This document shows positions 30,759 to 34,831 of a stretch of 64,000 nt of DNA, piece by piece (the stretch's first letter is position 1; every line of letters starts with the position of its first letter). The notes under the pieces were generated by a model that did not search any database, was not told the DNA's origin, and saw nothing but the letters and a program-made list of their open reading frames with translations. The stretch is from an uncultured Gammaproteobacteria bacterium (lineage in GTDB: Bacteria > Patescibacteriota > Microgenomatia > UBA12405). The translations under genes were made by a program, and so were the position numbers. The DNA lies in contig CAZCYZ010000002.1 of assembly GCA_964503465.1 (NCBI GenBank), forward strand, positions 6,995 to 70,994, given 5' to 3'.

Positions 30759-32129
30759 ATGGCTAAGAGTGATAGAATGTTGCTTCGTGATGCGGTCAAA
30801 AAGGGCCTGATTACTATGGCTGAGCGTGATGCGATTTTGGCCGAAACCGACCCGGCGAAGTATGCGTCGTCGATGGATTCTGTTGAACAAGAACTTCGGG
30901 CTGCGTCTCCATTTGGGCAGTTATCCAACACGGTGAGCACGCTGTTTTCGGCCAGCATGAGTATCGGTGGTCGAGATGTGCCCGTGTGGATTGTCGTAGG
31001 CCTTGTGGTTTTGGTGCTGGCCACTGGTGGTGTTCGCTTGGCCGCGGGCTCGATTAAGCTGGGAGATGTTGTCCTGCCGGTGGTAAGTCCAGAAACTGTG
31101 GCAAATTGGCTGACGATTGGTGACACTCCGATTCCTGTGAGTGCCCTGCCGACCCGTGGCTGGGTTGGCCCGATGCTCGTTGGATGGGCGATGGCGGTGG
31201 TGGCGGTGTTGTTTTCGATTCCCGCCCTGTTGTCGGTGGCCGATAACTTGGCCCCGCGTCCAAACCAGGGCTCCAACCTGTTAGGGGTGGTGTCCTTGGT
31301 GTGCTTCGTGCTGTCCTGGTGGTTGTGGTCAGTATGGTCGGTTATTTTGATGACCATCGCCGTGGTCTTTGCACAACGCCGCCGAGACGGGCAAAACATG
31401 CGCCTTTCGTCGGGATTGTTTATGGTGGTCTTGGTGCTGTGGGTGTGGTTTGATATCGTCGGCCCGGCAGTTAACGCCTTTGCGTCGAGCCTCGACCCGA
31501 ATAACCCACTGGTGGCTTGGATTCCGCAGGTCATCGCCTTGATTACCACCGGAGACAACATCCGCTGGGCAATGTCGGTGATTTTGTTCGGGGCACTGAT
31601 TGTCAGCGTCTTCACCCCGGAAAAGGATTCGTCGACGCTCATTGGGTTTGGGGCGCTGTGGTTGCTTTGGGCTCTTGTGTCTGGCGGCGTGCTTCTGGGA
31701 TTTGAACTGGTCACCTGGATGCCTTTCTGGGTATTCTGGGTTGCACTGGCGGTTGTCGTTCTGGCGATTGTGGTCGAGCTGTATCAGACCAGCACGTTAC
31801 CCATGATTATCGCCTTGGCTGTGGCCTATGGCCTCAGTTATGCGGTGACGTATCTTCTCCGCGACCAGCCGTGGTGGCCAGCCTCTGACTTCGCTCGGAT
31901 TCTAACTGAGCCGGTGGTGGTGGTCTATACCATCGTGCTGGCGGTTGGCGGCCTGATCAATATGGCCTTTGTTTCGAAGAACAAGGCCATTATGGATTTC
32001 TATAAGCTCGCCGGTAATTGGATGGGAGCGTTTGTCCCGCTTGGCCCCTTCCAGGTTCCTGCGGATGCGCTGACAGCGACCAACTTAGCAGTGGCCGTTT
32101 GGTTGGTCACTAACTACATGATGAAATAG
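30759..32129 (+). CDS. polytopic membrane protein, VirB6/TrbL-like by architecture
   Basis: 456 aa, about 10 hydrophobic segments after a ~60-aa soluble N-terminus; context with transfer ATPase and cell-wall hydrolase. Confidence 0.4.
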   Translation: MAKSDRMLLRDAVKKGLITMAERDAILAETDPAKYASSMDSVEQELRAASPFGQLSNTVSTLFSASMSIGGRDVPVWIVVGLVVLVLATGGVRLAAGSIKLGDVVLPVVSPETVANWLTIGDTPIPVSALPTRGWVGPMLVGWAMAVVAVLFSIPALLSVADNLAPRPNQGSNLLGVVSLVCFVLSWWLWSVWSVILMTIAVVFAQRRRDGQNMRLSSGLFMVVLVLWVWFDIVGPAVNAFASSLDPNNPLVAWIPQVIALITTGDNIRWAMSVILFGALIVSVFTPEKDSSTLIGFGALWLLWALVSGGVLLGFELVTWMPFWVFWVALAVVVLAIVVELYQTSTLPMIIALAVAYGLSYAVTYLLRDQPWWPASDFARILTEPVVVVYTIVLAVGGLINMAFVSKNKAIMDFYKLAGNWMGAFVPLGPFQVPADALTATNLAVAVWLVTNYMMK

Positions 32130-32135
32130 GAGGAA

Positions 32136-32459
32136 GTGATGAAAATGCACTTGGTTTTGTTCTTGTTGTTAATGGCTCTCCTGCTAACTGGCTGCGGCGA
32201 AGATAGCCGGCCGTTGGTGGCAGGTGAGAACCCTGTTACGGTGGAGACTGTAACAGAGGAAATTAACGAAGCGGCGGATAAGGTCGAAGAGACTGCTCCG
32301 GCGGTTCAACAACTGTGGGAGGCGATAAAGGGCTTCTTTGATGCCTTGCCTGACATCGAACTGTTTGACACTGGCGATATCGAGGAATACCGTCAGGAGA
32401 TTCAGGGTACTGGGCAACAAGAAGTGACCCCCACACCAACACCTTCGGGTGGTGAATAG
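32136..32459 (+). CDS. lipoprotein
   Basis: Signal peptide with lipobox LLTGC. Confidence 0.55.
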   Translation: MMKMHLVLFLLLMALLLTGCGEDSRPLVAGENPVTVETVTEEINEAADKVEETAPAVQQLWEAIKGFFDALPDIELFDTGDIEEYRQEIQGTGQQEVTPTPTPSGGE

Positions 32460-32468
32460 GAGGCTCGA

Positions 32469-33380
32469 ATGAGTATCGTAATGTGGTTATTTGTCATGGC
32501 TCTGGTGGCATTTGTTTGGTTGAAGTTTGACCCAATAACTCACTACTGGAACTGGGTGGCAACTAGAGCCCACAGTATGAAGACATCAACAAATTATGTG
32601 CGCCTGACTGATGCTGTGGTGGTGTCGGTGCACATGTTGTTGTGGGTTGGCGTGCCATCTGCTCTCTTCATGTCACCTCCGACTCAGTTGACCGTGGCAA
32701 TGGGGTTGCCCGACAAGGCGTCCGACCTTTGGTTCTGGACACTGTGGTTTGTTGTGGCGTTGGTGGGCGACACCCTCATTGTTAGCGGCATGATGCTGCT
32801 TTGGGGGCAACTGACCGGAGCGAGGGCAATGCTCCTGCGCCGAGTGTCGCCGTTGGTGAGCCGTCTGGTGATGTTTGTGTTAATGCTGGCACTGCTGGGG
32901 TTGGTGTACCAGGCTGCAAAGTTTTGCTTGGCGGCCATCTTGGCGGCGTCTCCAAGGACACCGAACTATGACGTCATCAACCTGTTTATGGCAATCCTTG
33001 GGGTAATACTGGCAGGCTTAGCCGTGAACGCACCGGTGGCGGCCATTGAGTTAGAGGGACTGACGGACCAGCTCGAAGAGCTTGAGAAGGCTGCCTTCCG
33101 AATCATGACTATCCGACAGATGGTTGCCAGTGGCCAGTATCGACTGCCGGCCGTCACGCCAGTAGATGGGATGCTACGAGTTCCCCAGGACCGAATGCGC
33201 AAGTTGTTAGCTGGCGCTGACTCGAGTACTCGCTCAGTTTTGGCCACAATGGCTGGACAAGGGCTTCTCTTGACGGATCCGGACTATCGGCATTTGTACA
33301 TCGACAGAACCCGAGCAGGTACTGACTTGCAGGTAATCAATGTCGAAGAGGATGGTCCTGGATTGCTTCGGCGACGATAA
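32469..33380 (+). CDS. membrane protein (T4SS component candidate)
   Basis: Multi-TM N-terminal half, soluble C-terminal half; start overlaps the previous gene region closely. Confidence 0.4.
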   Translation: MSIVMWLFVMALVAFVWLKFDPITHYWNWVATRAHSMKTSTNYVRLTDAVVVSVHMLLWVGVPSALFMSPPTQLTVAMGLPDKASDLWFWTLWFVVALVGDTLIVSGMMLLWGQLTGARAMLLRRVSPLVSRLVMFVLMLALLGLVYQAAKFCLAAILAASPRTPNYDVINLFMAILGVILAGLAVNAPVAAIELEGLTDQLEELEKAAFRIMTIRQMVASGQYRLPAVTPVDGMLRVPQDRMRKLLAGADSSTRSVLATMAGQGLLLTDPDYRHLYIDRTRAGTDLQVINVEEDGPGLLRRR

Positions 33381-33391
33381 GGAGGTGCGAA

Positions 33392-34831
33392 ATGTCCTCA
33401 AGACATAGAGCGCCACCGGCAGAACAAAAAGAACCGCCACCCGGTTGGGTTAAGACCGTGAGTTTTGTTTTATTGGTAGTTTTACTGGGTGTGGTTTGGT
33501 ACATTGGGCCGCAGGCCTTGCTCGAGAAAGAATCCGAACAAGACATGTGGTTGCTAGCCCAGACAAATTGTTTCTCGCTTGAGGGGCAGGTCCAGGTGGG
33601 GGAGAATTATTCCCTGGACTTGGCTCGGGCTCAAGATTTTTGCCAAATGACATTGGCACTGCTTGAGCCTGATCCGGAGAGTGACACTCCATTAGCACGG
33701 CTGAAATATCTAGGGGAATTAATATGGGGAGTGACTTTCCGGCCCCTCTGGGAGAGCTTGTTTGTTGGCGGAGCCGACGGTTACTGGGAACAGTGGCGCC
33801 AAGACTACGTCGATAGACTTGCTCTCCAAAGAGAGTCAAGAGAGTTGGCAGGCTCTTCTGCTCTCCCATCTGTAGTGGACCACTCCGGGGAGGTTCGTGA
33901 GGACGGAGTCAACCCTTCGTATGAAGCCGTGGTTCAGGAGGCAATGGCTCTTGAGGCTGAGTACGGAATCCCCATGGAGTACGTCTTGAGTGCATGCAGG
34001 TATGACTCAGGCGGACTACGACAATGGGAACTGGACGGAAGTATCGTCCAAGGGCATAACCCGTCCTCGACGGACTGGGGTATGTGTCAGGTTAATGACT
34101 ACTGGAATGCCGATCTGGTGTCCCAGTTTGATCTGACCAACCCCGAGTCACCCTGGCAGGACAATTTGCGAGCCGGATTTATAGTTATGAATCGCCAATG
34201 CTGGAGTCAGTTCTCTGATCTGGCTGACGGTCCAGTAATGGCCCGCAATTTGTTCGGTTGCTACAACGGCTCAGGCCCTGACGGCTTATACGCCGACAGA
34301 GCAATGGCTGTTTATGAGACGGCCTTTTGGGAGCCAATTGTGGCTGACCTAGAGGATGAGGCCAGGGAACAAGAAGAGCTGGTAGCGGATGAAACGAGAA
34401 GGACAGAGGAAGCCGTGAGTGGCGACACCTCGTCCCCGCAGGGCATAAGCCCGGTGGAAGGACCTTGGGTGCAAACTCAAGGTGATCATAATGGCACCGG
34501 AGCGGTAGATATTGGGATTGCGGGAAATCCGTGTCCTGACACTGACCCTCACTATAACATTTCAACCATCAATGGAACTGTATCTGTTGTTGGGGGTTAC
34601 AACAACATCGTGATGGTTGAAAACGCTCGGTATCGAGTTGAATACTGGCACAACTATGAAATATTGGTTGATGACAATACCAGTGCGAACCAGGGCGATA
34701 GAATTGCCATTATGGGACAGACGGGGAACACCACTTGGACGGCTGGATGCAACGGAGTGCATCTCCACTATGTCATTTACGACAAGTTATTGGGACAGTA
34801 CGTATCGGCCCAAACTTGGATTGTTCCGTGA
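33392..34831 (+). CDS. bifunctional cell-wall hydrolase: lytic transglycosylase (SLT-like) plus M23 peptidase (VirB1/CwlT-like)
   Basis: TDWGMCQVNDYW (SLT catalytic-region-like) mid-protein; C-terminal M23 motifs HNGTGAVD (HxxxD) and GVHLHY (HxH); N-terminal TM. Confidence 0.6.
   Translation: MSSRHRAPPAEQKEPPPGWVKTVSFVLLVVLLGVVWYIGPQALLEKESEQDMWLLAQTNCFSLEGQVQVGENYSLDLARAQDFCQMTLALLEPDPESDTPLARLKYLGELIWGVTFRPLWESLFVGGADGYWEQWRQDYVDRLALQRESRELAGSSALPSVVDHSGEVREDGVNPSYEAVVQEAMALEAEYGIPMEYVLSACRYDSGGLRQWELDGSIVQGHNPSSTDWGMCQVNDYWNADLVSQFDLTNPESPWQDNLRAGFIVMNRQCWSQFSDLADGPVMARNLFGCYNGSGPDGLYADRAMAVYETAFWEPIVADLEDEAREQEELVADETRRTEEAVSGDTSSPQGISPVEGPWVQTQGDHNGTGAVDIGIAGNPCPDTDPHYNISTINGTVSVVGGYNNIVMVENARYRVEYWHNYEILVDDNTSANQGDRIAIMGQTGNTTWTAGCNGVHLHYVIYDKLLGQYVSAQTWIVP

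Follow-up and report, generated by a model that had tools for sequence, protein, structure and literature searches.

The stretch of DNA analysed here, 64,000 nucleotides in length and referred to throughout as the window, comprises positions 6,995 to 70,994 of contig CAZCYZ010000002.1 (assembly GCA_964503465.1), which was deposited under the name of an uncultured Gammaproteobacteria bacterium and is placed by GTDB within the Patescibacteriota (Microgenomatia, UBA12405). Near its centre lies an operon of four genes (genes 1 to 4; Table 1) that encode a polytopic membrane protein, a lipoprotein, a second polytopic membrane protein and a predicted peptidoglycan hydrolase. At a probability that we place near 0.45, the operon specifies a lineage-specific membrane complex assembled around a muralytic enzyme of two activities, with expression controlled by a structured leader and with a hammerhead ribozyme separating its transcript from the downstream genes. 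The operon cannot be recognised as a type IV secretion channel, the function toward which a preliminary description of the same DNA, drawn up from its letters, had pointed.

The four genes are co-directional and tightly spaced, with intergenic gaps of 6, 9 and 11 nt according to the list of open reading frames (ORFs), and the coordinates given for them in the preliminary description are exact. That they are real genes follows from the recurrence of their synteny: the operon is found again in approximately 10 other metagenomic loci (numbered here with the prefix L), and the order of polytopic protein, small exported protein, second membrane protein and hydrolase is repeated on the contigs of these relatives. 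Its chromosomal position is shared by the window, L001, L004 and L005, where it lies between a divergently transcribed gene for a VirD4/HerA-like ATPase and rpsB-tsf. In L008, carried by a metagenome-assembled genome of candidate division WWE3, it is found between obg and a tRNA-Ala gene, with no VirD4-like ATPase within the 20 kb neighbourhood. This tRNA gene, a tRNA-Ala(GGC) on the reverse strand of L008 (11599-11675), lies approximately 600 bp after the last gene of the module, and the opposite border yielded no repeat of the tRNA end. When related genomes are compared, proteins encoded in the flanks are 59-75% identical and those of the module 25-48% identical.

Central to the proposed complex is the product of gene 4, which is supported by its sequence as a putative membrane-anchored, two-domain peptidoglycan hydrolase. 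Hydropathy analysis places a single N-terminal transmembrane (TM) segment at residues 16-45, ahead of the hydrolase domains just as had been described, and this segment is followed in order by a helical region, a lysozyme/SLT-like domain (approximately residues 170-310), an acidic linker and an M23/LytM domain (approximately residues 355-479). Peptidase_M23 (PF01551) matches residues 391-464 above its Pfam threshold (34.1 bits, cutoff 28.7), the HxH zinc-ligand motif is present as H457-L-H459, and the closest solved relative is LytM (PDB, E 0.005); NCBIfam returns weak, sub-threshold M23-type matches, among them LytM-type activators. Regarding the lysozyme-like domain, the peptide TDWGMCQVNDYW that had been assigned to it is found at residues 227-238, and an ordered series of motifs, [E/D]-S ... 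S-x-D-W-G-x-C-Q-[IV]-N-D ... C-Y-N-G-x-G ... Y, is present in 8/8 homologous domains, a series which we take to be the counterpart of the ES, GLMQ and AYNxG motifs known from family 1 lytic transglycosylases. Within this family Pfam SLT matches two of the eight members (best E 4.6e-5) and SLT_3 three of them (best E 1.5e-3), and a profile of the domain searched against the PDB retrieves C-type lysozyme across the STDYGILQIN region (E 0.03). The family is small, as gene 4 has three relatives besides itself in 5.8 billion clusters, and a metagenome scan with the lysozyme-like domain returned short, distant matches only, all on small contigs.

The partners of the hydrolase are less easily classified. 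The product of gene 2 begins with a signal peptide and the lipobox LLLTGC (Cys20), in agreement with its earlier designation as a lipoprotein, and it has no Pfam match and only weak lipoprotein-signal matches in NCBIfam; homologues are present in L001 and L002. In L009, a distant version of the operon, the same slot is filled by a LysM protein (65.7 bits), and in L008 by a protein with a C-terminus that was judged by eye to be LysM-like. Since L009 in addition carries its hydrolase as two separate genes, one matching M23 (49 bits) and the other SLT (34.7 bits, cutoff 21.3), the conserved content of the module appears to be wall binding, two lytic activities and polytopic partners. Gene 3, for which hydropathy predicts approximately five TM helices followed by a soluble C-terminal domain of approximately 100 residues, is a membrane protein as previously proposed; homologues are present in L001 (45% identity), L002 and L003, and no family match exists in Pfam, NCBIfam, PHROGs or PADLOC.

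Gene 1 had been called VirB6-like, and this designation does not survive. By hydropathy the protein consists of an N-terminal helical domain of approximately 60 residues followed by approximately 10 TM helices or hydrophobic segments. It has no match, to TrbL/VirB6 or otherwise, in Pfam, NCBIfam, PHROG or PADLOC, a word-indexed search retrieved no protein besides gene 1 itself, and an hmmsearch over all 1.84 billion cluster representatives recovered 13 proteins that compose one orphan family. Across these 13 homologues seven polar residues are invariant (R167, Q170, R207, R209, D290, E340 and D436), and the conserved polar residues are predicted to lie within the membrane. An AlphaFold model built from the 13-sequence alignment (pLDDT 76, pTM 0.65) has no Foldseek match in the PDB (best E 0.74, TM-score 0.15) or in BFVD, and so gene 1 may represent a confidently modelled fold with no known match. 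Identity with VirB6/TrbL was accordingly rejected on the basis of family, full-profile and fold searches alike, an outcome that cautions against the use of 'VirB6-like' for any polytopic protein encoded beside a hydrolase.

The preliminary description missed the RNA features that bracket the operon, located at 30364-30758 and 34938-35164. Upstream of gene 1, a promoter-like sequence and a structured leader are conserved at the DNA level although the encoded proteins are only approximately 30% identical, and for the leader and L001 this conservation is also detected by blastn. A strict promoter scan omits the promoter-like sequence because the last base of its -10 hexamer is an A. The leader contains a GTGGC...GCCAC hairpin, a terminator-like hairpin with a T8 tract (30465-30489) approximately 70 nt after the promoter, and a hairpin with 21-nt arms (30535-30586, identified as an inverted repeat), after which comes a GGAGG ribosome-binding site. 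The terminator-like hairpin suggests that read-through into the operon may be conditional, and candidate roles for the leader are those of attenuator, riboswitch-like element or small RNA.

Downstream of gene 4, a 364-nt spacer is more conserved than the genes flanking it, and within it lies a predicted type III hammerhead ribozyme with the sequence UGGAU-A/UCCCGAC-GUGAA-GUCGGGG-CUGAUGA-(stem II)-GAAA-UCCA, in which H17 would be A35112 and cleavage is predicted between 35112 and 35113 (oblique stroke). The hammerhead core pattern occurs once in the window, compared with 0.06 occurrences expected by chance. When six copies were used to build a covariance model, this model located a single copy behind gene 4 in each of the window, L001-L004 and L006, and additional copies in L007, where the contig end cuts the sequence, and in L011, the most distant locus, which has a canonical GUC site; it finds no second hammerhead in the window or island, the sole other candidate (28670-28722) reaching 13.7 bits with an E value of 0.72. 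The core (C3-U4-G5-A6-N7-G8-A9, G12-A13-A14, A15.1-U16.1 and a nucleotide other than G at position 17) is complete in the window, L001, L002, L004, L006 and L011, and L003 has a U at core position 9. Base pairing provides further evidence: A15.1-U16.1 and G10.1-C11.1 are invariant in 7/7 sequences, 93.4% of pair cells are standard, and compensatory changes affect 10 of 13 pairs and all three stems, a level of pairing reached by 0/500 shuffles and compared with 30-49% in slid controls. In addition, the three-way junction is recovered both by RNAalifold and by the minimum free energy fold of the single sequence. Together, conserved structure and covariation make this element a well-supported candidate member of the hammerhead class, for which self-cleavage is predicted.

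The position of the hammerhead is as constant as its structure. In all loci that carry it, its end is placed 8-29 nt ahead of the next start codon (gene 5 of the window starts 31 nt after it), and this spacer is A/U-rich and contains no Shine-Dalgarno sequence. Preceding the hammerhead is a further conserved RNA (34938-35105). Its hairpins include one that is capped by GNRA, one in which the 9-nt loop GAGGGAACC (34976-34998) is invariant, and another capped one at approximately 35054-35076, the loop of which is UUCG in L002-L004 and UUCAAG in the window. RNAalifold detects compensatory changes in 25 of its 46 pairs, the fold has a z-score of -6.3, and no Rfam family corresponds to it. The Pistol ribozyme (RF02679) was considered and rejected, as 34942-35001 scores 19.3 bits against a threshold of 34.5, the model has no match in L002-L004, L006 or L007, and the G-U dinucleotide at which cleavage would be expected after P3 is not conserved. 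A search of IMG/VR with the pattern GAGGGAACC...CUGAUGAG gave 71 matches, approximately the number expected by chance on a rough estimate, and none of these contains a hammerhead.

Table 1. Coordinates of the operon, its RNA elements and neighbouring features (window positions unless a locus is named).
Feature	Position	Strand	Description
Gene 1	30759-32129	+	456 aa, polytopic membrane protein
Gene 2	32136-32459	+	107 aa, acidic lipoprotein
Gene 3	32469-33380	+	303 aa, polytopic membrane protein
Gene 4	33392-34831	+	479 aa, TM-anchored hydrolase (predicted)
Promoter-like TTGACA-17 nt-TATAAA	30364-30392	+	aligned in window, L001, L002, L004
Structured 5' leader, ~360 nt	30403-30758	+	covarying hairpins, DNA-level conservation in 4 loci
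Conserved structured RNA, ~170 nt	34938-35105	+	hairpins covary in 5 loci
Type III hammerhead ribozyme (predicted)	35107-35164	+	stem III UGGAU/AUCCA, capped stem I, CUGAUGA, capped stem II, GAAA
Hammerhead copy, L001	11696-11754		
Hammerhead copy, L002	5399-5460		
Hammerhead copy, L003	3056-3130		
Hammerhead copy, L004	7735-7807		
Hammerhead copy, L006	4462-4526		
Hammerhead copy, L007	5058-5086		
Hammerhead copy, L011	6398-6461		
VirD4/TraD/HerA-like P-loop ATPase	26297-28468	-	723 aa, divergent neighbour of island
Five small Arg/Gly/Glu-rich ORFs	28922-30336	+	68-96 aa, between ATPase gene and operon; gene status uncertain
Gene 5	35196-36296	+	366 aa, Arg/Glu/Ala-rich soluble protein, host-like codon composition
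Gene 6	36320-37024	+	234 aa, Gly/Arg-rich; ends 40 nt before rpsB

From these elements a working model can be proposed. Transcription would start at the conserved promoter-like sequence and pass through the leader of approximately 360 nt before reaching gene 1. The N-terminal helix of the gene 4 product would anchor the enzyme in the membrane and leave its two catalytic domains outside the cell, where the lysozyme/SLT-like domain would attack the glycan strands and the M23 domain the peptide cross-links, and the wall so opened could be either the cell's own or that of a host. The gene 2 lipoprotein, or the LysM protein that takes its place in other versions of the operon, would link the complex with the wall. 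A membrane platform that positions or gates the enzyme may be supplied by genes 1 and 3. Self-cleavage of the hammerhead would then separate the mRNA of the hydrolase operon from that of the next one or two genes and, in so doing, would create the 5' end of the downstream mRNA 8-29 nt before its start codon.

Several observations weigh against this model. Firstly, the assignment of genes 1 and 3 to a platform draws solely upon their strict co-occurrence with the enzyme, and some loci have, in their place, proteins that are unrelated or have diverged beyond recognition (for gene 3 in L006-L009, for gene 1 in L008). By BLASTP the gene 3 counterparts of L006-L008 have no detectable similarity to gene 3 of the window, and by hhalign the first gene of L008 has none to the gene 1 family profile. 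Secondly, the first zinc-ligand motif of the M23 domain is non-canonically spaced. The HxxxD motif cited in the preliminary description occurs nowhere in gene 4, where its equivalent is H366-x6-D373 (HNGTGAVD), and of the two M23 motifs cited there HLH alone is present; the L007 homologue has a canonical HNGAD. With such spacing, either domain or both may lack activity or have a regulatory role, as LytM-type activators do. Thirdly, Pfam SLT (PF01464) has no match in the gene 4 product of the window at E <= 0.1, such that, of the SLT and M23 pair previously claimed, M23 exceeds its threshold and SLT is represented by motifs and weak family-level profile matches; hhalign and BLASTP likewise find no significant similarity between the window's lysozyme-like domain and the Pfam-certified SLT protein of L009. 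At the predicted catalytic position, moreover, an Asp (D205) is found in the window, L001 and L002 and a Glu in the other five of the eight domains, and the glycosidase may be weakened or altered in mechanism within this sub-lineage. The AlphaFold model of gene 4, built from four sequences, is poor (pLDDT 41.7) and thus unusable as structural confirmation of an SLT fold. Lastly, the hammerhead scores below the Rfam gathering threshold: the best match to Hammerhead_3 (RF00008), which is full length, belongs to L002 and aligns in the same register, reaches 26.4 of 48.5 bits, the window gives only a partial Hammerhead_1 match (12.3 bits), and the covariance model finds no copy in L005, L008 or L009.

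The base composition of the operon bears on its origin. As had been noted, the four genes are GC-rich relative to their surroundings (GC 0.50-0.58, compared with approximately 0.43-0.45 for the window). The excess extends to synonymous sites, with GC content at third codon positions (GC3) of 0.54-0.67 in genes 1-4 and 0.33-0.50 in 24 host genes on the forward strand, and it is therefore more than an amino-acid effect; the third-position G/C skew of genes 1-4 is also lower (0.07-0.29, compared with approximately 0.5 in host forward-strand genes). Module GC3 exceeds that of the flanking genes in every one of the window, L001, L002, L004-L009 and L011, usually by 0.1-0.25, with a smaller excess in L005, where gene 1 alone stands out, and in every locus it is at the hammerhead that GC3 falls to host-like values. 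The size of the excess follows the GC content of each host (in L011, for example, the module has values of 0.43-0.49 and the flanks 0.24-0.31), a pattern that favours long residence over a recent arrival out of a single donor pool and weakens recent horizontal transfer as the sole cause. Codon selection or recombination-associated GC bias might be its source.

Atypical composition would also be expected were the four genes the cargo or remnant of an unrecognised mobile element, prophage-like or integrative, in which they serve as a device for wall penetration or exit comparable to those phage tail lysins in which a lysozyme-like domain is joined to an M23 domain. Such an origin, which we regard as unlikely, would accommodate the placement of the module in a variable island, the interval between the VirD4-like gene and rpsB elsewhere carrying toxin-antitoxin, AbiEii and AAA_14/DUF4143 genes (L001 and L005), as well as the different chromosomal location of the L008 operon next to tRNA-Ala and the fast divergence of the proteins while the non-coding elements stay conserved. 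Bacterial hammerheads, furthermore, are typically found in prophage-like contexts, where they flank short blocks of genes (PMC3088659). On the other hand, no locus contains an integrase, capsid, terminase, replication or relaxase gene, and the scaling of GC3 with host GC speaks for long residence. A set of 50,697 phage records contains no relative of gene 1 or gene 4, and neither 72,556 plasmid records nor IMG/VR contain one of gene 4; on these grounds an origin in a prophage, plasmid or integrative conjugative element was rejected. No convincing direct repeats flank the island either, the att-like repeats at its borders being chance-level 15-mers only.

A second alternative retains the transfer function of the preliminary description and holds the locus to be a highly diverged type IV secretion system (T4SS) or transfer channel, in which gene 1 would be the analogue of VirB6, gene 4 a VirB1-type hydrolase, genes 2 and 3 VirB7/VirB8-like components and the neighbouring ATPase the motor. 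The ATPase indeed adjoins the island in the window, L001, L004 and L005, and Pfam assigns it to TrwB_AAD_bind (34.2 bits, cutoff 20.5) and DUF87 (27.1 bits). NCBIfam matches to TraD and VirD4-like models, however, fall far under their cutoffs. The protein also matches the functionally unannotated phrog_5156 (E 1e-66) and PADLOC mad8 (E 1e-15), and HerA/DUF87 and mad8 fit it as well as or better than the profile of a type IV coupling protein (T4CP). Conserved to the degree of housekeeping genes, it is 73-75% identical to the equally placed genes of L001, L004 and L005, in which RpsB is 59-60% identical, and its third-position C/G bias is the strand bias of the host; the ATPase gene is thus a conserved resident outside the GC-rich cassette. 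The L005 copy additionally shows a faint DUF8128 match.

Published data favour this second alternative in part, as bifunctional TM-anchored hydrolases are typical of monoderm T4SS, Patescibacteria possess VirB1 homologues, some with M23 or LysM domains, and in some classes VirB6 is 'scarce or absent, suggesting extreme divergence' (PMC12102498). Yet only 148 of 5,713 Patescibacteria T4CP homologues are near virB4, exaptation of T4CP homologues has been suggested, and the VirB1 homologues are mostly apart from virB4 (PMC12102498); because orphan T4CP homologues are the rule in this group the adjacent ATPase is weak evidence for a T4SS. Its gene is, in addition, transcribed divergently, variable cargo of 0.5-7 kb lies between this gene and the operon, its composition resembles that of the host, and it is missing near the L008 module. 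Most importantly, a Pfam scan that covered all window ORFs of 380 aa or more found no CagE_TrbE_VirB or VirB4-like match and hence no VirB4-family ATPase, the defining protein of these systems, the T4CP-like protein being the sole T4SS-like ATPase; relaxase, VirB3/PrgI, TrsD and VirB8 were likewise not found among the scanned ORFs of the window, and no relaxase domain among those of the related loci. Gene 1, as described above, resembles VirB6/TrbL in neither sequence nor fold. With VirB4, VirB6 and relaxase features absent from the ORFs scanned in the window, three of four features of membership were lacking, and a secretion system of this kind is distinctly improbable.

The same scan identified a number of housekeeping genes concerned with the envelope (a Wzy_C/TPR protein, MreB, a PBP2-type transpeptidase, an M50 protease, and CtpA-like and HtrA-like proteases) and with replication and translation (TopA, RpsB, EF-Ts, DnaX and CysS), and this setting raises the third alternative, that the operon is an ordinary cluster for cell-wall growth or division linked to mreB-PBP2. 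The mreB gene and that of the PBP2-type transpeptidase lie 9-11 kb upstream, and the shared location of the operon in four related genomes, from the VirD4-like gene to rpsB-tsf, goes part of the way toward the conserved chromosomal cell-division cluster that the preliminary description had named as the finding that would overturn its own proposal. Several properties nevertheless make a housekeeping role very unlikely, including the extreme rarity of the genes (13 representatives of gene 1 and four clusters of gene 4), divergence much faster than that of their neighbours, atypical codon composition and mosaic gene content between loci. Fast protein divergence together with GC3 above the surroundings fits a function at the surface or in host contact, or frequent exchange between related genomes, better than it fits housekeeping, and the lineage-specific muralytic complex remains the reading that we prefer.

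Beyond the operon itself, the island and its borders contain additional features. Downstream of the hammerhead, genes 5 and 6 are 28% and 27% identical to their respective counterparts in L001, and gene 5 has no Pfam, NCBIfam or PHROG match; a defence system was rejected, as genes 1-6 have no PADLOC match save a weak DUF3644 match on gene 5. These two genes are bracketed by a perfect 15-nt A/T-rich inverted repeat, AAATTAATTTTTAAA / TTTAAAAATTAATTT (35171-35185 / 37044-37058), one arm of which comes right after the hammerhead and the other right before rpsB; approximately 0.04 such pairs would be expected by chance on a rough estimate that assumes random composition, and more in A/T-rich spacers. 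Upstream of the operon, the five small ORFs have a host-like third-position skew and comparable runs are present in L001 and L004; the three that were scanned have no family match. Part of this region, a block of approximately 750 bp with a core of approximately 60% GC, is bracketed by a 26-nt inverted repeat that is 81% complementary (28716-28741 / 29493-29518). The block contains two overlapping small Arg-rich ORFs (28922-29170 and 29148-29411), is adjoined by a near-perfect 25-nt hairpin (28748-28800), and may be a small inserted element.

Elsewhere in the window, the 1.8 kb between topA and the VirD4-like gene (24480-26296) contain no ORF longer than 84 aa and, save for two chance-level hits, no Rfam match at E <= 1; the corresponding interval in L005 is approximately 640 bp. 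A 1643-aa ORF with no Pfam match, a GC2 (GC content at second codon positions) of 0.60 and a GC3 of 0.33 occupies 42363-47294 on the forward strand and is followed by a 433-aa ORF that is also without a match. GC skew is uniformly positive over positions 1-64000 (0.2-0.55 per kb) regardless of gene strand, with no switch in 64 kb, and third positions are G-rich in forward-strand genes (mreB, G3 148 and C3 22) and C-rich in reverse-strand genes (VirD4-like, C3 310 and G3 68). This skew is a very strong strand-specific mutational bias.

The potential importance of the locus lies in the biology of its hosts. Patescibacteria, or candidate phyla radiation (CPR) bacteria, lead an attached life on other cells, and their means of breaching cell walls are, to our knowledge, largely unexplained. 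Experiments have so far connected only one system with epibiotic growth, a VirB4-centred T4SS that has peptidase and lysozyme genes beside it (PMC12102498). The locus characterized here is a different and very rare wall-cutting membrane module, as we read it, with two orphan polytopic proteins and unusually conserved RNA elements. A bolder proposal, which we consider improbable at present, is that operon, leader and ribozyme together constitute an envelope machine of WWE3-like CPR epibionts, complete in itself and not described before, in which gene 1, with a new fold, and its partners would bring the double muralytic enzyme to bear where the cells touch and so open the wall of the host or of the cell itself, with the leader switching expression and the hammerhead processing the mRNA. 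Were this true, the locus would offer a natural chromosomal system for testing the biological role of a bacterial hammerhead. The hammerhead is in any case the more directly useful part, given that it marks a fixed operon boundary despite protein identities of 25-48%, and its constant location near the next start codon leads to the testable hypothesis that the ribozyme uncouples the two mRNAs and creates the downstream 5' end. A full-text literature search found no paper joining a hammerhead ribozyme and the candidate phyla radiation.

Comparison with known systems helps to place both the enzyme and the ribozyme. Lysins of the phage phi29 gp13 and SP-beta CwlP type consist of a lysozyme-like N-terminal domain and an M23 C-terminal domain, and gene 4 shares this domain order; it differs in its TM anchor, in the long helical region at its N-terminus, and in lacking surrounding phage genes or a match among the phage records. 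A second point of reference is provided by the VirB1-type hydrolases of monoderm conjugation systems, exemplified by TraG of pIP501 (SLT and CHAP) and PrgK of pCF10 (LytM, SLT and CHAP), and here the likeness to peptidoglycan enzymes of conjugation put forward in the preliminary description is borne out, as a glycosidase and a peptidase placed behind a TM helix are the VirB1-type arrangement (PMC12102498). These enzymes likewise begin with an N-terminal anchor, continue with lysozyme/SLT-like and peptide-cleaving domains, and are encoded beside polytopic membrane proteins. Gene 4, in contrast, has M23 as its only peptidase domain and no CHAP, its SLT-like domain is too diverged for Pfam and has an Asp at the catalytic position, and no VirB4, VirB6, VirB8 or relaxase is encoded nearby. 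The chromosomal T4SS of Patescibacteria, which a 2025 survey describes as VirB4 accompanied by TrsD, PrgI/VirB3, VirB6 and VirB2-like arrays (PMC12102498), share with the window a host group at the level of the phylum, a nearby orphan T4CP homologue and hydrolases with M23 or LysM domains; they differ from it in that the window holds no signature component and gene 1 cannot be retrieved as VirB6.

Bacterial hammerheads are known to flank genes in prophage-like polycistronic units (PMC3088659; Perreault et al., 2011). In comparison with these and with phage hammerheads (PMC3088659, RF00008), the element described here has the same core nucleotides, three covarying helices and an intergenic, operon-like position. 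It is distinguished by its type III arrangement with very short capped stems I (6-7 bp, with loops of 3-7 nt), by a score below the Rfam gathering threshold, by its occurrence as a single copy per locus rather than in tandem, and by its embedding, in five loci, in a conserved structured RNA of approximately 230 nt; whereas the known examples are prophage-like in context, its host is a CPR bacterium and its location a CPR chromosome. In haloviruses HF1/HF2 a hammerhead is found 13 nt upstream of a start codon, with a mapped 5' end that coincides with the cleavage site (PMC3088659), and it is this placement, just upstream of the start codon, that the hammerhead following gene 4 resembles.

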